Shown here piece by piece: positions 19,629 through 31,364 of a stretch of 64,000 bases of DNA. The stretch's first letter is position 1. Each line of letters starts with the position of its first letter. The notes under the pieces were generated by a model. It was given only the letters and a program-made list of their open reading frames with translations, was not told where the DNA came from and searched no databases. The translations under genes were made by a program, and so were the position numbers. This DNA comes from Candidatus Thorarchaeota archaeon (GTDB lineage Archaea > Asgardarchaeota > Thorarchaeia > Thorarchaeales > Thorarchaeaceae), in assembly GCA_030612005.1 (NCBI GenBank), contig JAUWOU010000005.1, positions 2,629-66,628 of the forward strand, in the 5' to 3' direction.

Positions 19629-19985
19629 TTAGTATCCCCATTCCTGGCCCTGTCTCTGCCTGTACCATCTACTGCCTTTCTTGGATAGGGACCACTGGCC
19701 ACCTAATTGCATCACAAGACCCATATTCTCCATATTCTGAAGTACTCCGAAGAGTTTGTCGTCGGATGCCCCAGTTACTTCCTTTAGATTTGGGAAGCTC
19801 ATCTTTCCATTTCGCTTCAGATGCTGAGCAATATCGAACTTGCCAACTGCTCTTGATTCAGTACGGACTATGATGTGACCGCAGTTTGTGCAAAGAAGGT
19901 CTCCTTTGTTATCGTCACGGGCGACTTCCTTACTACCACAGATTGGGCAGGTTGTTTGTGAGAATCTTAATCCACGTCGGGACAT
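19629..19985 (-). CDS. Small TFIIB-type zinc-ribbon plus winged-helix protein (putative DNA-binding)
   Basis: The N-terminus CPICGSKEVARDDNKGDLLCTNCGHII is a TFIIB/TFB-like Zn ribbon. The C-terminal half (..LKEVTGASDDKLFGVLQNMENMGLVMQ..) looks like a wHTH. ATG 19985 is preferred over TTG 19994. Confidence 0.5.
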   Translation of the reverse strand: MSRRGLRFSQTTCPICGSKEVARDDNKGDLLCTNCGHIIVRTESRAVGKFDIAQHLKRNGKMSFPNLKEVTGASDDKLFGVLQNMENMGLVMQLGGQWSLSKKGSRWYRQRQGQEWGY

Positions 19986-20058
19986 AGTTTTCAACCGATT
20001 GTCAGGAAAAACTGTCTACTGATAAAACTAGCGAAGGCGCCATCAATTTCACAAGTGT

Positions 20059-20556
20059 CTAGCTCTCAACAAGCTCCTTGAAGAATGATTCATAATTTAT
20101 CTCAAAGGGCACTCGGGTACCAATTCGAACACGTTTCTTGTCCTGGTCTATCTCAACATAGCCTTGACCCTGCAATTCCCTTAGATCAGCCATTACTCCT
20201 CTCAATGCTTTCTTCCTGAATTCGCGTACCCTATCCACGCTAACCCAACCCCCTTCTTGATAGGCAAGTGTGATGACAATAAGAAGCGTTGCTGCAAGTC
20301 TATCAGGTAGAGCTGTTGTTTGAGCTAGATTCACTTCGTCAGATGTATCTAGGTAGAATACTCCTGCCACTGGATTATGTCTGATGTAAAGACCAAGTGG
20401 TGTGACTCTTTTGTGAAGACTTCCCATTTTTTGAAATAGGAGATGCCGTCCTGTATCTTCAGGAAGTCTAAGTGCATCTAGCATGTCTTCTACGCTTGCC
20501 CCAATGGGTGTTCCTGTTCTTGTGAGTAACTTGACCAGCACAGCATATTCGTTCAT
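20059..20556 (-). CDS. Tandem winged-helix protein, ScpB/KITE-like
   Basis: 165 aa. The first WH is (LVKLL..GASVEDMLDAL..LGLYIRHNPVAGVFYL) and the second is (RLAATLLIVITLAYQEGGWVSVDRVREF..VMADLRELQGQGYVEI). Together they mirror the ScpB pattern (..LAIIAY.QPIT..EI..IRG....L..L...GLI). Confidence 0.45.
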   Translation of the reverse strand: MNEYAVLVKLLTRTGTPIGASVEDMLDALRLPEDTGRHLLFQKMGSLHKRVTPLGLYIRHNPVAGVFYLDTSDEVNLAQTTALPDRLAATLLIVITLAYQEGGWVSVDRVREFRKKALRGVMADLRELQGQGYVEIDQDKKRVRIGTRVPFEINYESFFKELVES

Positions 20557-21175: not shown

Positions 21176-22528
21176 GTGACTGAAGTAGTAACCGTCGAAA
21201 GTACCGAGGAACAAACTGAGGTCAAAGGCTTCAGAGCTGTCCTTGGTCACCGTGATTTCTCCCGACTCTGGTCTGGACAACTAGTATCGAATATTGGAAC
21301 TGCAATTTCCTCACTAGCTTTGATGTTCTATGCTTACCATCTCACTGGTTCTGCCATGGCAATGGCAATCCTTGCAATAGTACAAGTAATTCCAGTAGTC
21401 ATTTTCGCAGGTTTTGTTGGTGTCTATGTAGATCAGTGGAATCGAAAGAAAATCATGGTCGCTTCTGATATTGTCCGAGCAATTGTTATCCTATTCATTC
21501 CACTCGCGATTTACTTCCCTACATTTCTACCCACAATTCAATGGGTATACTTGCTCACATTCATTTACGCATCAGCCAATGCATGGTTCTTTCCAGCAAG
21601 GAGTGCATCAATCCCTAATCTTGTAGAACGCGACGAACTAGTCGCAGCAAACTCCCTATCTCAGATGACTTTCCAGGTTGTTCAGTTAGTTGTTCCTCCA
21701 GTTGGAGGTATCCTGGTTGCACTCCTTGCCCCCGATTACTTCCTTGCCTTTGCAATTACATCGATGACTTTTGCATTTTCAGCTATTGCACTACAAGGAA
21801 TCAAAACAAATCTGACTCCAACTCGTAAGGATTTGGACAAGGAATCTCTACGATCTCAGATAGTTCAGGGTGGTCGTTATGTTATTGGTAATTCAATACT
21901 CTCATTTCTATTCGTATTCGCAATGCTCCTTGCTGGCTCCTCCGGAATTCTGAATGCACTCCTGATGCCTTACTTTGAAGGAGAACTTGGATTGGGCGCT
22001 GCTCAAATTGGTCTTGTCTTGAGTGCTGGTGCAGCCTCTGGTGCTGTAACTGCCATTTACTTCAGCAGAAAGAAGGAGATTGAGAAACCCCTCTTTATCG
22101 TAACCGGTGCTGGTCTAATTGCTGGTGTAGCAATCTTTGCAATGGTTCTCGCCTTTGATCTATTTACAGTAATGCTCTCTTGGGCATTGATTGGAACAGT
22201 AGATGTGATGTTGAGCATTCCACTTACTGTCCTGATGCAGGAACTTGTAGATGACGAGTTACGTGGTCGTGTATTTGCATTACTCAGTGTAGTATTCACT
22301 GCTGTACAGGTTATTGGAATGGGTATTGGTGGTGTGTGGGCCGAGTCAGTTGGCTCAACTGGTCCCCCCTTGATTGGTGCAGCTATTGCAATGGTTATAG
22401 TATCACTCATCGGATTTGCAGCGATTTCTAGATTCAAGCTACATTCTCTTCTTCCTCAGAAACAGAAAGAATCTGAGAAAGAATCTGTAGAAGAGGAATC
22501 AGTTGTTCTTGTGGAAGATCATGCCTGA
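21176..22528 (+). CDS. MFS transporter (12 TM, EntS/MFS_3-like)
   Basis: 450 aa. FSRLWSGQLVSNIGTA, the loop 2-3 motif VDQWNRKKIMVASDIVRA, about 12 TM helices and an acidic C-terminal tail. Confidence 0.85.
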   Translation: MTEVVTVESTEEQTEVKGFRAVLGHRDFSRLWSGQLVSNIGTAISSLALMFYAYHLTGSAMAMAILAIVQVIPVVIFAGFVGVYVDQWNRKKIMVASDIVRAIVILFIPLAIYFPTFLPTIQWVYLLTFIYASANAWFFPARSASIPNLVERDELVAANSLSQMTFQVVQLVVPPVGGILVALLAPDYFLAFAITSMTFAFSAIALQGIKTNLTPTRKDLDKESLRSQIVQGGRYVIGNSILSFLFVFAMLLAGSSGILNALLMPYFEGELGLGAAQIGLVLSAGAASGAVTAIYFSRKKEIEKPLFIVTGAGLIAGVAIFAMVLAFDLFTVMLSWALIGTVDVMLSIPLTVLMQELVDDELRGRVFALLSVVFTAVQVIGMGIGGVWAESVGSTGPPLIGAAIAMVIVSLIGFAAISRFKLHSLLPQKQKESEKESVEEESVVLVEDHA

Positions 22529-22557: not shown

Positions 22558-23211
22558 TTAGGTCGCTTCTGGAATTTGAGGTCTCCAAATCTCACGTGTG
22601 ACAGGGTTATAGAGCAATCTACCTCGTGAAACTAGGATGATTACATAGAGGAAGTGTTTCAGAAATAGATCAAACTTGTCACTCTCGACAATGTTATCGA
22701 AAATGACTTTTCCTTCTAAAGGGATTGAGCTTAGGAATTTCTCCAAGTCTTCTATGAAGATAGAGTCTTCAGTATCAAGTGCAAATCCATTTGGTAGTGG
22801 AGTCATTTCTGGAATCTTATCTTCGGGGGGTTCCTTCGACAACGCTTCAATGAGCTGTACCACTCTTTCAAGAGATGCTCCAAGTGAAGAATGTTCAAGG
22901 TGTCCTATAACAACTGGTTGTTTCTGTACAAGTAGTTTAGCTAGATTCTTTGTTGATTTTCCCTTTATACGAGCTACATAGATTTCAGGAGATGCTATGA
23001 CTCGCGCGAGTTCTTGGACTCTGTTTACCTTAACACCGAGGACCTCGTTTAGCATCTCGTCAATGTCCAATCTGCTATCGAGCTTTTCAGCTAGCTCCTG
23101 TAGTTCTCTATAAGAATCAGTCAATCTAATTTCGAGAGGATCTACATCACCTGAACGAGCCGCCTGCACAATTTGGTAAACCCGTTCTGCTAGGCTTTCA
23201 TTCTTAGACAT
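22558..23211 (-). CDS. Kleisin-like SMC partner (ScpA/Nse4-like)
   Basis: 217 aa. N-terminal helix motif DVDPLEIRLTDSYRELQEL (compare ScpA eiDI..I.I..IT.QYL.YL). C-terminal WH FLKHFLYVIILVSRGRLLY. The ATG is preceded by GGAGG and lies 12 nt after the SMC stop. Confidence 0.6.
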   Translation of the reverse strand: MSKNESLAERVYQIVQAARSGDVDPLEIRLTDSYRELQELAEKLDSRLDIDEMLNEVLGVKVNRVQELARVIASPEIYVARIKGKSTKNLAKLLVQKQPVVIGHLEHSSLGASLERVVQLIEALSKEPPEDKIPEMTPLPNGFALDTEDSIFIEDLEKFLSSIPLEGKVIFDNIVESDKFDLFLKHFLYVIILVSRGRLLYNPVTREIWRPQIPEAT

Positions 23212-23223
23212 CTATTATTCCTC

Positions 23224-26200
23224 CTACTGTCCTTTGAACTTGGGACTTTCGATAATTACCGACGGCTCAACACCATTTGGTGAAACCACTCCAAGTATCT
23301 TGTCCGCGTGTTTCAGAAGATGAGTGCTCTTTGCAGGTGTAAACAGAACAAATTGACTTCTTCTAGATGCATCATGCAATAATCTACTAACAAGCTCAGT
23401 ATTTGTTGCATCAAGAAATGTATCTACTTCATCAAGGACATACACTGGAGCAGGGTTGAATCTTTGAAGTGCCAGGATGAGTGAAATAGCAATGAGAGAC
23501 CTCTCTCCACCTGATCCTGCACTAATAGCTCCGAACCCTTCAGCTTTGATTCTTGATTTGAATTCTACTCCATAGTCACCATCACGCATTGCCAACTCAA
23601 ATCGTACACTTCCCGGAAATTGCACACTTCCAAGAACTTCGTTGACTCCTTTCTCGACCTTTCGAAGTGTTTCGTTCATACCGTTATGGTATTGCTCACG
23701 GATACTCTTGACTGTAGATTCTGCTTCATCAAGTTCTTCATGAAGTTCTGTAACTTTCTCAACAAGTGTCATCAGACGGTCTTTAAGTTGGGTTTCTGTA
23801 TGAGCTACGGTTTCTGAAACATCCTGATAATCATCGAGTATGTGTCGCAATTTAATAAGTTCATTTCTAACTTCATCTAGGGGTCTCACAGTTTCTGGTT
23901 GGTCTAATCCATCTAGTTCTGCTTGTAGGTTCTCTATTTCATATTCCATATTGGTGAGTTGCCTTTTCCCTTGCAGAACCTGAAGCTTCCGTTCTTTAAT
24001 CATGAGATTGAGTTCTACCATTCTTCCACTGATTGCCCTATTTGTTTCCTTAAGACCAGCCAAATCTTCGAGAAGTGTTGTACGTTTATTTTCAGTCTGA
24101 TCTTGACTTGATTTCATTACCTCAATCTTCTCAAGTATCTCTGAAGTTGCATTTTTCGATTCCTTAATCTCTATACGTAGTTCTTTCAAACTATTGGAAA
24201 ATATTTCAACATCTTCTGATATTCGCTTCAGGTCTTGACGCTTTATTTCTTCATCTCTCTCTGCTGCATTTGCTCTACTATCGATTGCTGTGAGCTCTGT
24301 CTGTAAACGTCTTTGTTTAATCCTAAGTGCTGAATCCTGCCCCACCAATCTACTTCGTTCAGGAGGTTGAGTATTGTCCAGTTTTCTAAGATCTCTCTCT
24401 GCCTTTCCTATGTCCGCTTGAAGTAACTTCAGCTCATCATCAAGTGCAACAATCCGCTCTTCCTGCTCAGGTATAGTATCAAGTAACTTCTTTCGGCGTT
24501 CCCAAGTTCCACTCCATCGAGTCATTTGACTGAGTAGATCAAGAACCTCCTCACGTTGAGCCGTCAGGTTGTCCAGATTTGTCATTGTATCTGTGACTTG
24601 CTTGCGTGAGATTGTGAGTTCCTTGCTAGCCCTTGACAGCCTACTTTGAAGTGGTGCAGTTGAGACCATTCCAGAAGGTACTAACTTTGGATTACTTACT
24701 ATCTTTCCGTCGTCTGGGATAATGACCTGTCCATCAATCGTAACTGCTCGCAGATTCTCTTTCGTTGCAAGCCTAGTGGCAGTTCTTACCGTCTTCGTGA
24801 CCACAAAGTTTCCAATGGCTTTCTGCAATAAGTGCTGGGTTTCAGAATCAACGTTAAGATTGTCCCAGAGCCACCCCTCTACTCCAGAAGAGCTCTTGAG
24901 TGTTGGTCGCTCATACAATTCTCCTGAATCTTTCAATAAGATGAGTGGTGAGGGAGCTTCTTCGTTATCTCGTAATTTTTGAAGAATTTGGAAATCCGTT
25001 TCTTCTGTAACGATAAAGGCTAGAGCAAGATTATCTGAGAGGACTGACTCTACTGCGGTTGCAATGGAATCATCAGCACTGAATACTTCTATCAACGGCC
25101 CCGTGACTGATTCTAACTTATGCTCTGTTATTGCATCTTTCAGATTCCGTACACTTTCAGGCATTCTCTTTGAGGTTTCTGACAATCGTACGTTGAGATC
25201 ATCAATCTCTTTCTGTAAGGTTGCAACCAAACTACTCTGTCTAAATCGCTCTTCATTTAGTGTTGCAATCTCCTTCTCAAATTGTCCCTTTCGACGAGTT
25301 AGTTCCTTCTCATCCGATTTCTCCATGATTGTCCAGACGTGAGACCACTTACTTTCGATTGCTTGCAGTTCTGCTTCCTCAACTTGAACTCGTTCTCTTA
25401 CACTTCTGAGGAGCAGATCTTTTCCCTCTATCTCAGCCTGAAGCGCCTTGTATTTGCCATGTGTTTCTGCTCTTTTAGTATTCCATTCTGCAAAAGCTTC
25501 CAATTCATCTCGAATTTTGGAACGTTCTTCTTCTATTTCTTGAATCTCTACTCGAAATTCTCTCTGTTTTTCCATGGTAGATTCTTTTGTCGCAGTAATT
25601 CGGTCAATATCTTCTTGGAGTTTCTCTTTGCGCTTCTTCTCTGAGTTGACTTGTTTCTCTAGCTCACGAAGCTCGCTTACTTGTTTCTTAGAGTCGCCCT
25701 CTAACCGTGCAAGATTTCTTTCTTCTTCCTCAATTTTAGCATCAATTCTACCTATTTCCACCTGAATGTTAGAGAGAGCAGTAGTAAGTTCCTCCGTTTC
25801 AGATTCATTATCAGATATACTAGATTGAATCTGGGTCTGCTCATCAAGAATCGAAACAAGACCTGATTCTTTCCCCTCGATTTCTTCTTTGATTTTTTGG
25901 ACTCTTTCTATGATATCATTTAATGACGCCCATTTTAAATCATGTTCAAGTGACTTTTCTTGCTCCAGAAAAGCTCGTTTTTTGTCCAATCTACTGAGGT
26001 CATGCTGGAGAAGTTCTAGTTCTCGCTCGACTGATTTTGATTCTGTAAGCGCGGTTTCCAACCTGTGCCGACTCTGAATTACCGCGGTTTCTTGGAGAAT
26101 AATTCTATCTCTTAGAGCATCAAGACCTGTTCCTTCTTCTACAAGTCTACGCACTTCGTAGGGATCCATATCTCGAATTGCATTGATTCTTTCCTGAGGA

Positions 26201-26595
26201 ATGAAAACTAGTGGATTATCTGTATCCAAACCGAATGAGTCTACAATATGTCGTAATTCTGCAGCCTTGACTCTACGTCCATCTACATATGCTCTTGGAA
26301 TTCCATCTCTGTCAATTTTACGTAGAAACTTCCTATTCTGACCATTTACTTTTACAGTGACCTCTACTTGGGCAGTACTGGCTCCATGACGGATGAAATC
26401 ACTCCACTTGGAATACCGATTCTCTCGCTGATTTGATCCAAGGGCAAATTTGAGTGCATGGAAAATCGAGGTCTTGCCAGATCCATTGGGTCCTGCTATC
26501 ACTGTGAGTCCTTTGTCAAAGAATACTTCCCCTGAGTAGAATGAGAGGAAGTTATCCAACTTTGCAGACTCTATGTGAGCTCTAACATTACTCAA
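23224..26595 (-). CDS. SMC-family ATPase with hinge; head motifs are SMC5/6-like rather than canonical
   Basis: 1123 aa. Walker A GPNGSGKT, long coiled-coil arms, a hinge block GPLIEVFSADDSIATAVESVLSDNLALAFIV, signature SGGERS and Walker B VYVLDEVD. Non-canonical FIPQERI and QFVLFTPAK. TTG start preceded by AGGAG. Confidence 0.9.
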   Translation of the reverse strand: MSNVRAHIESAKLDNFLSFYSGEVFFDKGLTVIAGPNGSGKTSIFHALKFALGSNQRENRYSKWSDFIRHGASTAQVEVTVKVNGQNRKFLRKIDRDGIPRAYVDGRRVKAAELRHIVDSFGLDTDNPLVFIPQERINAIRDMDPYEVRRLVEEGTGLDALRDRIILQETAVIQSRHRLETALTESKSVERELELLQHDLSRLDKKRAFLEQEKSLEHDLKWASLNDIIERVQKIKEEIEGKESGLVSILDEQTQIQSSISDNESETEELTTALSNIQVEIGRIDAKIEEEERNLARLEGDSKKQVSELRELEKQVNSEKKRKEKLQEDIDRITATKESTMEKQREFRVEIQEIEEERSKIRDELEAFAEWNTKRAETHGKYKALQAEIEGKDLLLRSVRERVQVEEAELQAIESKWSHVWTIMEKSDEKELTRRKGQFEKEIATLNEERFRQSSLVATLQKEIDDLNVRLSETSKRMPESVRNLKDAITEHKLESVTGPLIEVFSADDSIATAVESVLSDNLALAFIVTEETDFQILQKLRDNEEAPSPLILLKDSGELYERPTLKSSSGVEGWLWDNLNVDSETQHLLQKAIGNFVVTKTVRTATRLATKENLRAVTIDGQVIIPDDGKIVSNPKLVPSGMVSTAPLQSRLSRASKELTISRKQVTDTMTNLDNLTAQREEVLDLLSQMTRWSGTWERRKKLLDTIPEQEERIVALDDELKLLQADIGKAERDLRKLDNTQPPERSRLVGQDSALRIKQRRLQTELTAIDSRANAAERDEEIKRQDLKRISEDVEIFSNSLKELRIEIKESKNATSEILEKIEVMKSSQDQTENKRTTLLEDLAGLKETNRAISGRMVELNLMIKERKLQVLQGKRQLTNMEYEIENLQAELDGLDQPETVRPLDEVRNELIKLRHILDDYQDVSETVAHTETQLKDRLMTLVEKVTELHEELDEAESTVKSIREQYHNGMNETLRKVEKGVNEVLGSVQFPGSVRFELAMRDGDYGVEFKSRIKAEGFGAISAGSGGERSLIAISLILALQRFNPAPVYVLDEVDTFLDATNTELVSRLLHDASRRSQFVLFTPAKSTHLLKHADKILGVVSPNGVEPSVIIESPKFKGQ

Positions 26596-26610: not shown

Positions 26611-27681
26611 TTAACGACCCATTATTCTGTGAAGTCTATCGCTACTTTTCTTTGCTCTAAGCAATCGTGTAAGACGATCTTCTGGACTGCCATTCAAAAG
26701 GTAGGGGTGCTTCGCAAGAAACTCCCTATCATTTTTTGATAGTGGCATTCCATCATTCAACACCTCTATGATCCGTTGGGTTCCAGCGTAGTCCTCTCCA
26801 ACAGCCATCAAGTAAAGTTGATCTAGAAAGTCGTCTGGATATTCGCTACTGAGAGCTTCCATTGGTGGTTGAGTTGTACCTGCAGTCCTTCTAACAACAG
26901 AATCGAGAAATCGAGGGTTACTTAGCGGTATTACTCCACTATTCTCAATAATCTCTTCTATTTGCTCTCGAGGTATCTGGCCAGTTTCATTAGTTTCCGA
27001 CATGAATAGTGATACTGATAGTCGCTTCATGCTTGTAAAGCTCCACCCATCAGTAAGTTCAGCAACTACTGTTGGGTCGATATCCTTCCTGTTTCGCAAG
27101 ACTTGTTCAAGGATACGAACTCTATCCTCCAATGAAGTGCCTTCAATGATGTAGGTTCTATCAAATGATGAGAGAAGCTCTGCATCGATATCACTTGGAC
27201 GAGTTGTTGTACCTATTACCAACACTTCCTCCCCATCCCAACTTGTTCTAGTGATCTCGTCAAGAAGTATAGCCGACTGGTCACTATTACCTGGAGCGAC
27301 TGCGTCTAACCTCTCCACCAACATCACTGTAGGAGAGTTCCTTCGTGCGAACTCAAACCCAACTCTAATTAACTCAGAACCTCTTTTAGCCTCATTGAGA
27401 ATTTCCTCCATTTTGAACCGTACCATTTTTAGTGGTACATCTCGACAAAGATGGTGAGAAAATGCTTCAAAGTCCGTTCCTGGTGGTCCAATAAGGAGTA
27501 CTCTTGCACCAAATTCTAGACCCGCCTCTGACATGTTTCGTTTAAGGATATCATAGCGACTCATCAATGATTGATGTTCCATTGCTTTTGTCACAACAGA
27601 GTACTGACTTATTCTCTCTGCAGGTTGTTTCTCTGGTTCTGTCAGGGTGACTGCTTCTGCATAGTTTATTTCTTCGCCCAA
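26611..27681 (-). CDS. AAA+ fold protein with all catalytic motifs degenerate (pseudo-ATPase); first gene of the SMC operon
   Basis: Classical AAA backbone (VLLIGPPGT.., ..PTVMLVERLDAVAP.., VLVIGTTTRPSDIDAELLSSFDRTYII). Walker A is GPPGTDFE (no Lys), Walker B has DE replaced by ER, sensor-1 has N replaced by T, and the Arg fingers are lost. The start is uncertain (TTG 27681 or a later ATG). Confidence 0.7.
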   Translation of the reverse strand: MGEEINYAEAVTLTEPEKQPAERISQYSVVTKAMEHQSLMSRYDILKRNMSEAGLEFGARVLLIGPPGTDFEAFSHHLCRDVPLKMVRFKMEEILNEAKRGSELIRVGFEFARRNSPTVMLVERLDAVAPGNSDQSAILLDEITRTSWDGEEVLVIGTTTRPSDIDAELLSSFDRTYIIEGTSLEDRVRILEQVLRNRKDIDPTVVAELTDGWSFTSMKRLSVSLFMSETNETGQIPREQIEEIIENSGVIPLSNPRFLDSVVRRTAGTTQPPMEALSSEYPDDFLDQLYLMAVGEDYAGTQRIIEVLNDGMPLSKNDREFLAKHPYLLNGSPEDRLTRLLRAKKSSDRLHRIMGR

Positions 27682-27905: not shown

Positions 27906-29615
27906 ATGAGCATTCCTTCAGACAAGCTGAGAGAGTTAGTGAATAGTGTAGTAATGACAGTAGAGAGTAGAGGTCTCTTTGTTCATTCTACAGACCTCGA
28001 AATCAAGTACACTTCTAGTAGTAAGAACAAAAAGATTCAGACTGCTAGACTTCCTCTCATAGTCGGAACTTGCGTTCTCAATGCACTGGTTCCGCGATCT
28101 GCTATGTTGTTGGTTGGAGGTCATGGTGGCGGAAAAACAACGCTGGCCAAAATCCTTGGTCGGATGATGACAGGGAAGAGTCTTGAAGAAATTGAGGATG
28201 GCATTCTGCGCGGCCATTCAGGTCTTACAGAAGAAAAAATGGTCGCTACACTTCGACCTGGACCACTAATAAAAGACGGAATTGAAGTTGTTGTCTGGCG
28301 CTCATTTGTGACTGGTTTCTGGAAGATCATTGATGAAGTTAATCGACTCACTCCATTCTCTCAAAATATCCTCCTATCTCTGCTTGCAGAGGGTGAGGTG
28401 AAATATTATGATGAGGTTAAGAGATGTGAGGAATTCTGTCTATATGCTACCCTCAATCCAGCTGATGCAGGAACCTTCGATATGGGGCCTCCGTTCCTCG
28501 ATAGATTTGGGATGGCAGTTCCAATAACGATGCCGACTGTGAGCGACCTTGAACTGATACTTGCGGCGAGGGATGACCGCTTGTTTGGCTACGATGAGTT
28601 ATGGCAAGTCCCAGCTCTTCTGACAGAAGAAAATCTCTTGACCATATGGAATCTGGCTGATAAGGTTTCAGTATCATCTGAGGCTTCCGAATACTTGAGA
28701 TCCATCGTTCGAGAGTTTGGAGCTTGCATACGAGGTGACAAGAGCCAATCCTCCGGTCTTACAGTAGAAACAGGTCTCTGTGATGGATGTCATTTCAATA
28801 CCGCAAAGAGTGTCTGTAACAAGGTGATTATACCACTCAGTGTTAGAGCGGCAAAAGACCTGAATAGATACTCAAAGGCAGCCGCATGGCTTGTTGGAGC
28901 CCAGGAAGTGACCATCGCGATTGTGAAGTCATTGGCACCTCTTGTCTTCTGGCATAGAACTCGATTTGTGCGAGATGAATCAGAGAGGTCTCCGTACTAT
29001 GGTGATATCTATGCGTTCACACAACATCTTGTAGAATTAGCCTCAGCTAGGTTCGCGCAGAGAGGGGCCGCAGTAGAAATTATTGGGAATCTGAAACACG
29101 GCAAGCAATCAAAGGAGGCAATCGATCAACTCAAAGAGATGTCCAAGAGTGATTTACTTGTTCGGCTTGATTATGCCAAGTTTGCTAAGGAACTAAAGAA
29201 ATCAAAATATGCAAAGACAGTCCAAAGTATAGAACGAGGGATCAAAGATCGAGATGTTGACAAACTCACAAAATTACACGATGAGTTACTTCGTGATACA
29301 GACTTTCCTAACCGAAGTATGCTTCTGAAACAAACCTTAGATGCTCTGCACAAATTGACATTGACACAATTTGAATTGACATTTGAGCAATGGCAGGATA
29401 TCTGGAGCACGATTGGAATTAGTTATCCACTATTAACTCCCGTTCTCAAAGAGACCTTAGAACCTCCCAAAAGGAAAGTTCTCAGGATAGACGGTTTCAC
29501 TTTAGTGATCTACGTGACTGGTGACTCCCCTGAGTCTTCAGTCTTTCTTGAGATATCTGGTGGCTCTGAGGCATTGAAACTGAAGAAAGAGTTGGAGGAC
29601 CAGTTGAAGTCATAG
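27906..29615 (+). CDS. MoxR-like AAA+ ATPase with a Cys-containing lid insert and a ~190-aa C-terminal extension
   Basis: Walker A GGHGGGKTT, Walker B/sensor KIIDEVNRLTPFSQNILLSLLAEGEV, ATLNP and FLDRF. Lid segment VRAAKDL..AAAWLVGAQEVT...LVFWHRTRF, with the insert C-x17-CDGC-x9-C. Confidence 0.75.
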   Translation: MSIPSDKLRELVNSVVMTVESRGLFVHSTDLEIKYTSSSKNKKIQTARLPLIVGTCVLNALVPRSAMLLVGGHGGGKTTLAKILGRMMTGKSLEEIEDGILRGHSGLTEEKMVATLRPGPLIKDGIEVVVWRSFVTGFWKIIDEVNRLTPFSQNILLSLLAEGEVKYYDEVKRCEEFCLYATLNPADAGTFDMGPPFLDRFGMAVPITMPTVSDLELILAARDDRLFGYDELWQVPALLTEENLLTIWNLADKVSVSSEASEYLRSIVREFGACIRGDKSQSSGLTVETGLCDGCHFNTAKSVCNKVIIPLSVRAAKDLNRYSKAAAWLVGAQEVTIAIVKSLAPLVFWHRTRFVRDESERSPYYGDIYAFTQHLVELASARFAQRGAAVEIIGNLKHGKQSKEAIDQLKEMSKSDLLVRLDYAKFAKELKKSKYAKTVQSIERGIKDRDVDKLTKLHDELLRDTDFPNRSMLLKQTLDALHKLTLTQFELTFEQWQDIWSTIGISYPLLTPVLKETLEPPKRKVLRIDGFTLVIYVTGDSPESSVFLEISGGSEALKLKKELEDQLKS

Positions 29616-29627
29616 AGGCTTAGATAA

Positions 29628-31364
29628 ATGGAATCTTACAGCAACACACCAGTAGAGCAAGACACACTCAGAGTGGTTGCTGGACAGGCATGGTTTCGAG
29701 CAATTCAAGACTTCTATCATCCACCTCTACCTGAGCCTGAGATTGAACACATTCACGGAGCTTCTAGTTTCTTTTATATTGATACTGATAGTTGGACCGT
29801 TCATCTGAATACTGCTGGAGTACCAGTACATATGATAGCCTCAGACGCAGAGAATTATCTGACATCAGTATGCCATCATGAAATCCAGCATTATCTTCTA
29901 TGTCCGTTTGATGGCGTAATGAATGGGAGAATGTTTGTAGCTGCTCGAAAGCATGTGAATGATGCTACAGCTATGTTTGTTTGTAACCTCTTTGCAGATT
30001 TTGTGGTAGACTCTAATCTTCTAAGAAGATTTACTGATCTCACTCATAAGAGAATCAACTCATCAATCCATGATTCTGCTATACGTATACATGACCATAG
30101 CGACCTCTGGAAATTAATCGTTACTTGCTACAGAGTGATGTGGGGTTTTCCAATTCCGCCAACTGTGAAAATTGATCAGAATATCTTTGAAACTGCAAAT
30201 GAGATTGTGGACGTAGTTCGCGGTACAGTAGAGCACGAACACAAGTGGCCCAAGGCTTGTGAGAAGATTGCGAAAATAATCTCAGAGTGGATACCAGAGG
30301 ATGAGGAAGGATTGCCTGGAACTTCTTCTGGAGGGTCTAAGAATGTTGAGCATGAGAATGCAGATGGTTTGGAGGAAACGATAGAAATTCCCCTTGATGT
30401 GGATGCGATAATGGGTAACCCTGTTGAAGCAAGGAATGGAGACCGTGCAAAGAAATGCATAGAACGTCTTGAGAGACCTAATTTAGAAGAAGAGATGGAA
30501 CGACTAGCGATTGACGTTGAGCAGCTAGGTGGGGACATCGAGGATTTACAAGGTGTTTACCGTACAGCTGGAGTTGGTTCTGAACGAGCTGCGTGGACAA
30601 GATTTTGGTACAGGGCAAAAGCTCACAGAGCAATTAGATTTGAGGTTGATACGAAAAAGATGACTGGTTCAATTCCTCTTACTCCTGAAGTTTGGAGGTT
30701 GGGTGATCCACTTGAAGAACTTGATATTGTACAATCTCTTCAGACATTTCCTATTCTAATTCCTAATCGTTCAACGAGAAAATGGCAACAATATGAAACC
30801 ACCGGAACTGAGATTTCAAAATCGCCTCCTGATATGTTGATAGTCATTGATTCTTCAGGTTCAATGACTTGGGCTATGAGAACTCGTACGATATCAGGTG
30901 ATTATCATACCGCCTTGGTTGCTGCTTTTGCAGCGATGGATTTTGCATTTAGGCGTGGTTGCAGAGTCGCTGCCATAAATTTCAGCGATGGTACTAGTAC
31001 ATGTGATTGGTCCAATGAACGTACTCCCGTAGAAAGAGTCCTCCTATCTTACCAAGGCGGTGGTACAGTAGCCCCAGTCAAGAAGATTGTTGAAGCATGT
31101 GATAAAGCTGAATCCGATGTGATTGCTCTACTCATTACTGATGCAGAGGTTTCCAACTGGAAACAAATGGTTAAGGGTGTGGAGAAGTTGTCAAAACGTG
31201 GACACAAGCTCTTCTTGTTCCATATAGGTGCTGGAAAGAGCTCTCGAACATCCGCGATTCATCAATCTCTTTCCAAGGCAGGAGCCACTGTCTATCCTAT
31301 CAAGTCAGCAAAGGATCTTCCGGGTCTTGTAGTACGCGAAGTGCGCTCTGTTTACAGAAAATAG
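29628..31364 (+). CDS. HExxH metallopeptidase-like domain fused to a VWA domain (MoxR partner)
   Basis: The N-terminal part carries VCHHEIQHYLLCPFDG (HExxH). The C-terminal part carries MIDAS DMLIVIDSSGSMTW and a Rossmann-like VWA pattern. It starts 12 nt after the MoxR-like gene. Confidence 0.75.
   Translation: MESYSNTPVEQDTLRVVAGQAWFRAIQDFYHPPLPEPEIEHIHGASSFFYIDTDSWTVHLNTAGVPVHMIASDAENYLTSVCHHEIQHYLLCPFDGVMNGRMFVAARKHVNDATAMFVCNLFADFVVDSNLLRRFTDLTHKRINSSIHDSAIRIHDHSDLWKLIVTCYRVMWGFPIPPTVKIDQNIFETANEIVDVVRGTVEHEHKWPKACEKIAKIISEWIPEDEEGLPGTSSGGSKNVEHENADGLEETIEIPLDVDAIMGNPVEARNGDRAKKCIERLERPNLEEEMERLAIDVEQLGGDIEDLQGVYRTAGVGSERAAWTRFWYRAKAHRAIRFEVDTKKMTGSIPLTPEVWRLGDPLEELDIVQSLQTFPILIPNRSTRKWQQYETTGTEISKSPPDMLIVIDSSGSMTWAMRTRTISGDYHTALVAAFAAMDFAFRRGCRVAAINFSDGTSTCDWSNERTPVERVLLSYQGGGTVAPVKKIVEACDKAESDVIALLITDAEVSNWKQMVKGVEKLSKRGHKLFLFHIGAGKSSRTSAIHQSLSKAGATVYPIKSAKDLPGLVVREVRSVYRK

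Follow-up and report, generated by a model that had tools for sequence, protein, structure and literature searches.

SMC5/6-related complexes of archaea

Asgard and TACK archaea possess SMC5/6-related SMC-kleisin-kite operons, for example NZ_CP042905.1_495/496/497 of Prometheoarchaeum syntrophicum and MDVS01000027.1_69/68/67 of Heimdall LC_3, and this lineage, a paralog of Smc-ScpAB, is thought to be ancestral to the eukaryotic Smc5/6-Nse4-Nse1/3 complex (Yoshinaga and Inagaki 2021, PMC8665677; van Hooff et al., bioRxiv 10.1101/2024.01.07.573240). TACK members make up most of the published SMC5/6-related clade. The published representative of Thorarchaeia has two SMC5/6-related SMCs and no canonical SMC, a single Nse1/3-related kite whose gene is not next to that of its SMC, and a separate adjacent ScpA-like/ScpB-like pair; an Nse4-related kleisin was undetected for this representative in the published survey. 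Baldrarchaeum has SMC5/6-related SMCs and Nse1/3-related kites only, and other Asgard genomes have a separate condensin-related set beside the SMC5/6-related one.

The 64-kb stretch of Thorarchaeota DNA analyzed here (the window) contains a locus that probably encodes, in its Thorarchaeota form, a non-canonical SMC holocomplex that occurs Asgard-wide and belongs to the archaeal "SMC5/6-related" lineage. The suggestion of an SMC5/6-related complex had been made in a sequence-only reading of the same DNA, and is largely right but not new: the evolutionary significance of the locus is real, but has been in print since 2021.

The SMC protein and its separation from canonical SMC

The SMC ATPase gene (23224..26595, minus strand, 1123 aa) has a TTG start, which is supported by the alignment of residue 7 with residue 3 of Pyrococcus furiosus (Pfu) Smc; the database gene call (P0001, 1111 aa) begins 12 codons later. 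The product matches SMC_N over residues 8-1105 (Pfam, 6.7e-40) and SMC_hinge at residues 495-610 (2.2e-9), and is a complete SMC, with ATPase motifs intact and a hinge present. Its N-terminal head (~26080-26595, minus strand) contains Walker A GPNGSGKT (26470-26493, residues 35-42) and the Q-loop FIPQERI (26185-26205, residues 131-137); the hinge (24766-25113) reads GPLIEVF... from residue 499; and the C-terminal head (~23227-23754, minus strand) contains the signature SGGERS (23497-23514, residues 1028-1033), Walker B VYVLDEVD (23422-23445, residues 1051-1058) and the family-specific QFVLFTPAK (23329-23355, residues 1081-1089). All SMC peptides quoted in the sequence-only reading were located in the 1123-aa translation. 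The open reading frames and the tight packing that it described, with 12-15 nt spacers and Shine-Dalgarno-like motifs, were likewise found as claimed: the stop codon (TAA) of an AAA gene is followed by a 15-nt spacer (ctaggagaagaaaac) with AGGAG and then the SMC start, and the SMC stop codon (TAG), overlapped by GGAGG, is followed by a 12-nt spacer (gaggaataatag) and the ATG of a kleisin-like gene.

The protein scores 278 bits against TIGR02169 (canonical archaeal Smc) versus a cutoff of 729 bits and is, as judged by this family model, not a canonical archaeal Smc. Orthologs occur across Thorarchaeota metagenome-assembled genomes (MAGs) with 51-94% identity. In a search of SMC representatives, Asgard clusters score 200-974 bits, after which generic SMCs fall to ~100-157 bits, and there is no clearly TACK member among the best 150 representative matches. 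The Asgard-wide family thus delimited (family A) spans Thor, Jord, Baldr, Odin, Loki and Sigyn-like lineages; cluster look-ups returned Thor, Jord, Baldr, L. ossiferum, Hel and Odin for family A, and Thermoplasmatota and Aquificae for the generic side. A neighbor-joining tree of family A and 85 canonical SMC representatives (444 head and hinge columns) splits the two sets in 100/100 bootstraps. All family A members have one extra residue ahead of the Q-loop, and where canonical SMCs read QFIV[I/V][S/T]-[L/H][R/K/N] they carry two inserted residues, "xP" (QFxxx[T/V/M]P); these indels map to the Q-loop and H-loop. The view that the SMC and its neighbor form an SMC and kleisin-type pair other than Smc-ScpAB holds on the family-model score, the bootstrap split and the lack of ScpA or ScpB matches among the partners.

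Affinity to eukaryotic Smc5/6

Head profiles of family A and of canonical SMC were compared by paired bit scores. Human Smc5 (142.5 with family A versus 111.5 with canonical), yeast Smc5 (133 versus 112) and yeast Smc6 (112.5 versus 88) score higher with the family A profile, SMC1-4 (147-175 versus 254-302) and Pfu Smc (190 versus 497) do the opposite, and the Rad50 Mja control is neutral (123 versus 124). By these profiles, Smc5/6 heads are closer to family A than to canonical SMC. In absolute terms, Smc5/6 (89-142 bits) still rank below SMC1-4 (147-175 bits) with the family A profile.

Single-sequence similarity of the SMC leans to Pfu Smc, SMC2 and Rad50. Rad50 and Pfu Smc are better matches of the N-terminal head than Smc5/6, the sole PDB matches of the Q-loop segment are SMC2, and for the C-terminal head segment the best match is Pfu Smc (64 bits; Smc5/6 27-31 bits). 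As a test of similarity, the likening of FIPQERI and QFVLFTPAK to Smc5 does not stand up. What survives of the proposal that the protein is SMC5/6-type rather than ScpAB-type is its non-canonical character and the affinity of the family A profile to Smc5/6; the motif argument does not. The profile differentials, together with the published tables, point to an SMC5/6-related placement, and family A presumably corresponds to the published SMC5/6-related clade.

The kleisin-like and kite subunits

The gene downstream of the SMC (22558..23211, minus strand, ATG start) encodes a 217-aa candidate kleisin-like subunit, identified by position and predicted fold. An N-terminal helical domain carrying SGDVDPLEIRL (23122-23154) is followed by a disordered middle (residues 76-146) and a C-terminal winged helix (residues ~147-213; FLKHFLYVIILVSRGRLLYN at 22606-22665). 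The AF2 model is of low confidence overall (pLDDT 54.9), with a C-terminus of H-H-H-β-β topology (pLDDT 71-82) and a disordered linker, and Foldseek found no significant match with it. Sequence searches of Pfam, NCBIfam and PDB sequences gave no match for the protein; the C-terminal winged-helix domain of Pfu ScpA (4i99_C) is a weak profile match at the corresponding position (E=1.1), and alignment by hhalign of the IDP(L/W)(E/D) N-terminal motif with ScpA-like neighbors of canonical SMCs has a probability of just 6%. The partners in every family A locus lack Pfam matches to ScpA, ScpB, Nse4, Nse1 and MAGE; for comparison, the neighbor of a canonical Thermoplasmata SMC matches SMC_ScpA (1.2e-3). 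No sequence-level link of the kleisin and kite to Nse4, Nse1 and Nse3 was found. Of the two models, ScpA and Nse4, that the sequence-only reading proposed for comparison with the partner, neither is matched in sequence, but the kleisin architecture is there. Kleisin homologs occupy the same position in further Asgard loci, and kleisin and kite are conserved across Thorarchaeota MAGs.

A 165-aa tandem winged-helix protein (20059..20556, minus strand) lies beyond the segment covered by that reading, which overlooked it. It would be the third subunit of the complex, and modeling supports a kite fold: the AF2 model has two winged-helix domains (pLDDT 77.5), and its top Foldseek matches in the PDB are JetB (7.9e-6), ScpB (3.3e-5), MukE (1.9e-4) and MAGE-G1 (7e-4). 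JetB and ScpB outrank MAGE/Nse3 as structural matches. A profile of the kite family retrieves Loki, Sigyn-like, Odin, Jord and Baldr counterparts (1e-15 to 1e-61), and the kite of one ortholog has a weak match to DUF4194, the JetB family (1.8e-3).

Gene neighborhood

The gene order AAA-SMC-kleisin-kite is found in 15 loci from at least six Asgard lineages, with the kite directly after the kleisin in L001, L003, L005, L007, L021, L022 and all other family A loci. In the window, a gene for an MFS transporter (21176..22528, plus strand, Pfam MFS_1 1.4e-30), which is outside the complex, separates kleisin from kite; locus-tag gaps between the two genes in several Thor MAGs show that this arrangement is real. 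In L003 the MFS gene follows the kite. A gene for a TFIIB-type zinc-ribbon and winged-helix protein (19629..19994, minus strand, 121 aa, Pfam Zn_Ribbon_TF 2.3e-8), whose place downstream of the kite is conserved only in Thor-like lineages (the six loci named above), may be accessory or regulatory. GC content is uniform, and no second SMC is visible within the 64-kb window.

The AAA homolog lies immediately upstream of the SMC on the same strand in 15/15 family A loci read. In the window (26611..27681, minus strand, 356 aa, Pfam AAA 6e-13) it combines a classical AAA fold with a conserved C-terminal helical module (~26611-26841), and is predicted to be a catalytically dead, conserved pseudo-ATPase, with degenerate Walker A (GPPGTDFE, 27466-27489) and Walker B (VMLVERLD, 27304-27327) motifs; among family A homologs, GPPGTGKT and DE are retained in the Odin copy only. 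The loss of the Walker A lysine and the Walker B acidic pair had been overlooked in the sequence-only reading. The nearest NCBIfam/PADLOC model is the anti-phage ATPase IteA/IetA. Divergent from the operon are a MoxR-like AAA_5 ATPase (27906-29615, plus strand, Pfam AAA_5 2.7e-12) and a VWA-like protein (29628-31364, plus strand, weak Pfam VWA); the position of this pair is kept in Thor-like loci, and in Jord (L023) and Baldr (L025) the pair is co-directional and immediately upstream of AAA-SMC-kleisin-kite. Published descriptions of archaeal SMC5/6-related systems (van Hooff et al.) mention neither the pseudo-AAA+ protein nor the MoxR-VWA neighbors, and the conserved pseudo-AAA+ is possibly an element of the locus that is new.

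Proposed function and alternative explanations

The genes for SMC, kleisin and kite would be co-transcribed with that of the pseudo-AAA+ protein, and an SMC homodimer would be bridged by the small kleisin, which would carry a dimer of kites. By analogy with established SMC biology, the SMC hinges would dimerize; ATP, sandwiched between Walker A/B of one head and the partner head's signature motif, would engage the heads; the kleisin would bind one neck of the SMC dimer through its N-terminal domain and the opposite head's cap through its C-terminal winged helix, so that a tripartite ring is closed; kites on the central kleisin would help to clamp DNA against the engaged heads; and ATP cycles would power DNA entrapment, translocation or loop extrusion. 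Such a complex may act in repair, in a replication-associated process or in chromosome organization, and the pseudo-AAA+ protein may be a regulator or loader.

The locus could instead encode an Asgard-specific SMC paralog complex without specific kinship to eukaryotic SMC5/6, family A then being a different clade from the published SMC5/6-related one and the apparent affinity being a long-branch or composition effect. The partners' lack of Nse4 or Nse1/3 signal, the higher absolute scores of SMC1-4 and the absence of clearly TACK members from the best 150 matches, although the published clade is mostly TACK, are consistent with this, and a genome scan did not recover the published genes of P. 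syntrophicum and Heimdall LC_3. It is nevertheless unlikely: with the Rad50 control the family A profile has no general edge, whereas Smc5/6 gain 21-31 bits; the Thorarchaeia and Baldrarchaeum representatives are tabulated with SMC5/6-related SMCs only; and the gene order and Pfam-invisible partners fit the description of P. syntrophicum 495-497.

A fast-evolving housekeeping condensin, the Thorarchaeota ortholog of Smc-ScpAB escaping family models, would account for the source annotation ("chromosome segregation protein SMC"), the ubiquity of the gene in Thor MAGs in a core-genome neighborhood, the single SMC of the window and the heads of Pfu Smc being the best single-sequence PDB matches. 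The bootstrap split, the family A indels and the low TIGR02169 score make it very unlikely, as do other Asgard genomes, in which the same family occurs beside a separate condensin-related set, and the separate ScpA-like/ScpB-like pair of the published Thor representative. Least probable of all is a defense-type SMC (Wadjet, MksBEF or Lamassu-like) that would serve to restrict plasmids or viruses and not to act on the chromosome. JetB as the kite's best structural match, the DUF4194 match and the IteA/IetA-like AAA partner agree with it, and eukaryotic Smc5/6 itself restricts extrachromosomal DNA (van Hooff et al., 10.1101/2024.01.07.573240), but PADLOC yields no JetA, JetB, JetD or nuclease match and a JetC match of 26.8 bits in coiled coil, the hinge is of the classical SMC type, GC content does not vary, and the locus is near-universal, syntenic and single-copy in housekeeping surroundings in Thor and other Asgard lineages, whereas defense islands are patchy.

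Comparison with known systems

With Wadjet JetABC(D)/MukBEF the Thorarchaeota locus shares an SMC-like ATPase, a kleisin and a kite whose top structural matches include JetB and MukE, but it lacks a JetD/MksG nuclease and sequence matches to JetA, JetB and JetC, its hinge is not MukB-type, and it is a vertically conserved part of the core genome. Like canonical Smc-ScpAB (P. furiosus, Bacillus subtilis; TIGR02169/TIGR02168), which supplies the best single-sequence PDB matches of its SMC, it has an SMC with a hinge, a kleisin that begins with a helical domain and ends in a winged-helix domain, a tandem winged-helix kite and the order smc-kleisin-kite; unlike it, the SMC is below the equivalog cutoff and splits off in every bootstrap, the Q-loop/H-loop indels differ, and the partners are missed by ScpA and ScpB models.

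Eukaryotic Smc5/6 has the same SMC, kleisin and kite (not hawk) architecture, its heads score 21-31 bits higher with the family A profile than with the canonical one, and the significant structural matches of the Thorarchaeota kite include the Nse3-type kites MAGE-G1 and MAGE-A4. It differs in having an Smc5/Smc6 heterodimer rather than one SMC gene (presumably encoding a homodimer), and Nse1 and Nse3 rather than one kite; the Thorarchaeota locus is without a RING domain, the Nse2 SUMO ligase and Nse5/6, and its SMC has lower raw identity to Smc5/6 than to Pfu Smc or SMC2. Relative to archaeal SMC5/6-related operons, the window differs in the MFS gene that splits kleisin from kite and in offering a kleisin candidate for Thorarchaeota, where the published survey detected no Nse4-related kleisin in the Thorarchaeia representative; the separation of that representative's kite from its SMC is what a kleisin in between would lead one to expect. 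In common with those operons, it comes from an Asgard archaeon, has one SMC gene with genes for a small kleisin and a small kite after it, partners unrecognized as ScpA/ScpB, and an SMC distinct from canonical archaeal SMC.

The SMC gene cluster

The three closely packed minus-strand genes picked out in an earlier sequence-only reading were recovered exactly: an AAA protein of 356 aa (26611-27681), an SMC protein of 1123 aa with a TTG start (23224-26595), and a 217-aa partner (22558-23211), with AGGAG inside the 15-nt AAA-SMC spacer and GGAGG overlapping the TAG stop codon at the 12-nt spacer between SMC and partner. All of the peptides quoted in that reading are present in the SMC translation.

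SMC proteins sensu stricto combine a head of the ABC type, made up of an N-terminal and a C-terminal part (Walker A, Q-loop, signature, Walker B and D-loop) with a central hinge dimerisation domain between long coiled-coil arms. The translated SMC of the window has a complete set of head motifs (GPNGSGKT, Q134, SGGERS and VYVLDEVD) in the split ABC-type arrangement, Pfam SMC_N covering residues 8-1105 (6.7e-40), and an SMC_hinge domain (residues 495-610, 2.2e-9, over the 22.5-bit cutoff) flanked on each side by a predicted coiled-coil arm of ~320 aa. The public gene call for this protein (P0001, 1111 aa) begins 12 codons past the TTG at 26595 (window 26560-26595). The longer TTG form is favoured by homology to the N-terminus of Pyrococcus furiosus (Pfu) Smc, residue 3 of which aligns to residue 7 of the TTG-started protein, and by the AGGAG located 7 nt upstream.

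The best 120 homologs of the SMC protein are 51-94% identical to it, those that are named come nearly all from Thorarchaeota MAGs, and they are annotated as 'chromosome segregation protein SMC' or 'AAA family ATPase'. The flanking genes (H+-pyrophosphatase, WD40 protein, NAD(P)HX repair, DUF359, and an Fe-S/flavin oxidoreductase pair) are syntenic with those of relatives and GC content is even along the window; thus, the SMC locus belongs to the core chromosome and not to an island. There is no second SMC-sized gene within the 64-kb window, and the close representatives examined for a second, canonical SMC in Thorarchaeota (P0362-P0371) are all syntenic orthologs, with no paralog among them.

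Separation from canonical Smc-ScpAB and other SMC-like proteins

When 1.84 billion cluster representatives were searched exhaustively with the SMC protein as query, the scores fell in steps, with Thor-type orthologs at 718-974 bits, further clusters at 200-440 bits, and thousands of generic SMCs at ~100-157 bits. The upper-scoring clusters derive from Thorarchaeota, Jordarchaeales, Baldrarchaeia, Lokiarchaeum ossiferum, Helarchaeota, Odinarchaeota and unclassified Asgard archaea, and the named lower-scoring (canonical) clusters from Thermoplasmatota and Aquificae. Every member of the Asgard SMC family, to which the window protein belongs, carries an additional residue ahead of the Q-loop (N-P/I-x-x-F-x-[P/S/A]-Q) and a two-residue insertion that produces Q-F-x-x-x-[T/V/M]-P where canonical proteins have Q-F-I-V-[I/V]-[S/T]-[L/H]-[R/K/N]. 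Because these indels are common to all members, the FIPQERI and QFVLFTPAK segments to which the sequence-only reading drew attention are real signatures of the family.

Several identities other than an SMC5/6-type protein were weighed. Against a canonical Smc, the protein falls below the equivalog cutoffs (TIGR02169, 278.1 versus 729.4 bits; TIGR02168, 261.9 versus 567.35 bits), and a neighbor-joining tree of 444 head and hinge columns separates 28 Asgard-family from 85 canonical SMCs in 100 of 100 bootstraps. Its partners are also not ScpA or ScpB: neither PF02616 nor PF04079 has a match at E<=1 among the window proteins, nine orthologous kleisins and eight kites, and in a control the neighbour of a canonical SMC matches SMC_ScpA at 1.2e-3. 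By these sequence comparisons, the window SMC is not a canonical archaeal or bacterial Smc. Rad50 has a zinc hook in place of the hinge, which is present here, and the window SMC reaches just 50-77 bits with Rad50 models whose cutoffs are 700-1087; an archaea-specific SMC-related protein (ASRP) is rejected likewise, by the hinge and by a score of 141 bits against the cutoff of 300 (NF045487). As for Wadjet, Lamassu or other SMC-like defence systems, the similarity that PADLOC detected was confined to generic ABC-head matches (mad3, LmuB N-terminal), with no matches for the kleisin, kite, MoxR or VWA proteins, no JetA/B/C/D or LmuA/B/C assignment and no nuclease effector; the lack of defence-system signatures together with core-genome conservation makes a defence role unlikely.

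Kleisin-like and kite subunits

Kleisins consist of an N-terminal helical domain for binding the SMC neck, a flexible middle and, for binding the SMC cap, a C-terminal winged helix. The 217-aa protein (22558-23211, minus strand) has 216 homologs; the 120 of them that were listed are 64-96% identical, and the named ones among these 120 are all Thorarchaeota 'hypothetical protein' entries; a Pfam domain is absent from every listed homolog. The protein itself has no sequence match in Pfam, NCBIfam or PDB. Its AlphaFold2 model comprises a helical N-terminal part (pLDDT 50-62), disorder at residues 76-146, and a C-terminal H-H-H-β-β winged helix (pLDDT 71-82), so that on its predicted structure it has the layout of a kleisin, and with its gene adjoining that of the SMC it is a candidate for this subunit. 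Foldseek with the low-confidence whole model gave no significant match. PDB searches with the kleisin and kite as single sequences and Thor profiles, and with a broad Asgard kite profile, yielded one on-target signal, a weak match (E=1.1) of the kleisin profile to the C-terminal winged-helix domain of Pfu ScpA at the corresponding position. In hhalign, 'G-D-V-D-P-L-E-I-R-L' of the Asgard kleisins paired at a probability of 6% with 'G-S-I-D-P-W-D-I-D-L' of the ScpA-like neighbours of canonical Thermoplasmata SMCs, the aligned part being the N-terminal IDP(L/W)(E/D) motif. The Thorarchaeota lineage, in which the published survey detected no kleisin, now has a concrete candidate.

The SMC and kleisin genes were present as the sequence-only reading had described them, but a third subunit gene lies outside the stretch that it flagged. 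Gene order in relatives is AAA, SMC, kleisin (~211 aa), a gene of ~168 aa and a Zn-ribbon gene; in the window, the ~168-aa gene corresponds to a 165-aa minus-strand ORF (20059-20556) that is 62% identical to those of two homologous loci, L001 and L003. Its AlphaFold2 model has two tandem winged helices (pLDDT 77.5), the fold of the kites that partner kleisins, and JetB, ScpB or MukE account for nine of its ten best Foldseek matches in PDB, with MAGE-G1 in eleventh place (probability 1.00, E 8e-6 to 7e-4; JetB and ScpB ahead of MAGE). The predicted fold and these structural matches identify the protein as a kite. The kites of all Asgard family loci, that of Baldrarchaeia included, are mutually homologous (1e-15 to 1e-61).

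In the window, an MFS transporter gene (21176-22528, plus strand) separates kleisin from kite, and the kite gene is preceded by a gap of 619 bp; L003 has its MFS gene after the kite. Locus tags in several Thorarchaeota MAGs also leave gaps of one or two genes between kleisin and kite, indicating that the split arrangement is real, and the MFS insertion, the 619-bp gap and the locus tags together suggest that in this sub-lineage the kite is probably transcribed from a promoter of its own. In every Thor-like locus, the kite is followed by the gene of a 121-aa protein (19629-19994, minus strand, in the window) that combines a zinc ribbon of the TFIIB type with a winged-helix-like region at its C-terminus; the Loki, Sigyn-like, Jord, Baldr and Odin loci have no such gene in this place.

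The order SMC-kleisin-kite is found in the 15 Asgard family loci read, the partners being invisible to ScpA and ScpB models. A member of the Sigyn-like sub-clade, 41% identical, is encoded on a contig labelled 'Candidatus Bathyarchaeota' (L011, WJJB01000312.1), which is either mis-binned or evidence of a TACK member of the Asgard SMC family. In the sub-clade labelled Sigynarchaeum/'Hodarchaeota' (proteins P0381, P0382, P0384 and P0389; loci L008-L010), the ABC signature S-G-G-E/Q is replaced by S-E-G-Q, an unusual substitution in an ATP-contacting motif.

A degenerate AAA+ protein and other linked genes

A homolog of the AAA gene was found directly upstream of the SMC gene, on the same strand, in each of the 15 Asgard family loci read: the window, six other Thor-like loci, one each from Jord, Baldr, Odin and L. 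ossiferum, one further locus, and three Sigyn-like (window 26611-27681, minus strand; L001 8914-9984; L004 8607-9971; L023 5183-6004; L024 3862-4977; L025 4082-5029; L026 3456-4982; L010 8656-9948). The fold matches PF00004 (6e-13). Active classical AAA+ proteins have GxxxxGK[ST] as Walker A and hhhhDE as Walker B; the window protein has GPPGTDFE and VMLVERLD at these positions, and 11 of 12 aligned orthologs have lost both the lysine of Walker A and the acidic pair of Walker B. Only the Odin copy is intact (GPPGTGKT and DE), and it looks like an active AAA+ of the classical clade. All copies have in common a C-terminal helical module that is specific to the family.

A pair of MoxR-like AAA_5 and VWA-like genes (window 27906-31364, plus strand; L023 1865-5177; L025 609-4095) is divergent from the SMC cluster in Thor-like loci. 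In Jordarchaeales and Baldrarchaeia the pair lies immediately upstream in a co-directional MoxR-VWA-AAA-SMC-kleisin-kite array, which suggests that it is functionally linked to the SMC cluster.

Van Hooff et al. do not mention the pseudo-AAA+, MoxR-VWA and Zn-ribbon partners, for which no description turned up in a literature search either; the pseudo-AAA+ partner is the one potentially new element of the locus. Tentatively, and with somewhat less than even confidence, the pseudo-AAA+ protein could be an integral, undescribed fourth subunit or a loader/regulator of an Asgard SMC5/6-type complex, possibly acting with MoxR-VWA in the Thor, Jord and Baldr lineages. If so, direct archaeal relatives of Smc5/6 already had a dedicated accessory factor that is neither kleisin nor kite, and in function the pseudo-AAA+ could have foreshadowed the eukaryotic accessory subunits or be analogous to them. 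Across Asgard lineages a degenerate AAA+ protein (in some of them MoxR-VWA also) is linked to SMC as tightly as are kleisin and kite, giving a testable hypothesis on the accessory factors of a pre-eukaryotic SMC5/6-type machine.

Possible affinity to SMC5/6

The motif resemblance from which the sequence-only reading had argued for an SMC5/6-like head was not borne out by direct similarity tests: SMC2 is the only PDB match of the Q-loop segment, for the C-head segment Pfu Smc comes first (64 bits), ahead of SMC2-4 and SMC1 and then of Smc5 (31 bits) and Smc6 (27 bits), and Rad50 and Pfu Smc rank first for the N-head. Raw similarity therefore does not reveal a likeness to SMC5/6, and a full-text literature search found no papers with the Smc5/6 motif strings cited in that reading.

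Because eukaryotic Smc5/6 evolve fast, two head-only profiles, built from 25 Asgard family members and 25 canonical SMCs, were compared against PDB. Scores with the family and canonical profiles, respectively, were 190 and 497 bits for Pfu Smc, 158 and 456 bits for Bsu Smc, 147-175 and 254-302 bits for SMC1-4, 142.5 and 111.5 bits for human Smc5, 133 and 112 bits for yeast Smc5, 112.5 and 88 bits for yeast Smc6, and 123 and 124 bits for Methanococcus jannaschii Rad50. Thus, relative to the canonical profile, the family profile gains 21-31 bits on Smc5/6, loses 94-130 bits on SMC1-4 and is neutral on this Rad50, although its absolute scores are still higher for SMC1-4 than for Smc5/6. By these scores canonical SMC lies far nearer to condensin/cohesin-type SMCs than the Asgard family does, whereas the family appears to be the nearer of the two to Smc5/6, and Rad50 as outgroup gives no sign of a generic bias; this is the pattern expected for a specific SMC5/6 relationship, read from a comparison of profiles and not from a phylogeny. 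Nse1, Nse3, MAGE and Nse4 gave no sequence match to the kite and kleisin profiles in PDB or Pfam. A possible Nse1/3-like character of the window kite has an indirect argument in its favour, namely its homology to the family kite of Baldr, given that the published kites of Baldrarchaeum are all Nse1/3-related.

Proposed complex and comparison with known SMC systems

An SMC with every catalytic motif and a hinge, accompanied by kleisin-like and kite partners, would most likely form an SMC homodimer-kleisin-kite2 ring, an ATP-driven, DNA-entrapping and loop-extruding machine of the Smc5/6/ScpAB/MukBEF (kite) class, to which the pseudo-AAA+ protein might contribute as a non-catalytic accessory factor. 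We infer the assembly, stoichiometry, DNA activity and biological role of this complex by analogy.

Yoshinaga and Inagaki reported 80 homologs termed 'SMC5/6-related aSMC', mostly in TACK and some in Asgard archaea (PMC8665677). Two operons in TACK and Asgard archaea were described by van Hooff et al., one condensin/cohesin-related with ScpA/ScpB-like partners, the other comprising an SMC5/6-related SMC, an Nse4-related kleisin and an Nse1/3-like kite, as in P. syntrophicum genes 495-497 (bioRxiv 10.1101/2024.01.07.573240). Their Thorarchaeia representative lacks a canonical SMC but has two SMC5/6-related ones, together with a single Nse1/3-related kite located apart from its SMC and, separately, an adjoining ScpA-like/ScpB-like pair, and no Nse4-related kleisin was detected in it; in Baldrarchaeum, the only SMCs are SMC5/6-related and the only kites Nse1/3-related (bioRxiv 10.1101/2024.01.07.573240). 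The co-localised kleisin and kite of the Asgard loci, distinct from a ScpA/ScpB set, fit the published operon description, and the L. ossiferum family member has the same SMC-220aa-187aa layout with partners that Pfam does not see. From the published counts, the kite homology that extends to Baldr, and the L. ossiferum layout, we infer that the Asgard family is the published SMC5/6-related class; the identification is indirect because a search of genome contigs with a profile of the Sigyn/'Hod'-labelled sub-clade, which recovered 13 loci but neither Heimdall LC_3 nor P. syntrophicum, missed the published gene identifiers.

The SMC5/6-type reading of the locus was right in kind, although its motif basis was not borne out by similarity tests, it omitted the kite, and the idea had already been published. 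Since the point was made in 2021 and full Asgard SMC-kleisin-kite operons followed in 2024/25, the window is a well-resolved Thorarchaeota example and not a discovery. Archaeal relatives of SMC5/6 bear on the origin of the eukaryotic set of SMC complexes. The conserved cluster contains no RING, SP-RING or solenoid gene; unlike eukaryotic Smc5/6, which has an SMC heterodimer, two kites (one of them RING), the Nse2 SUMO ligase and Nse5/6, the window locus encodes a single SMC and a single kite.
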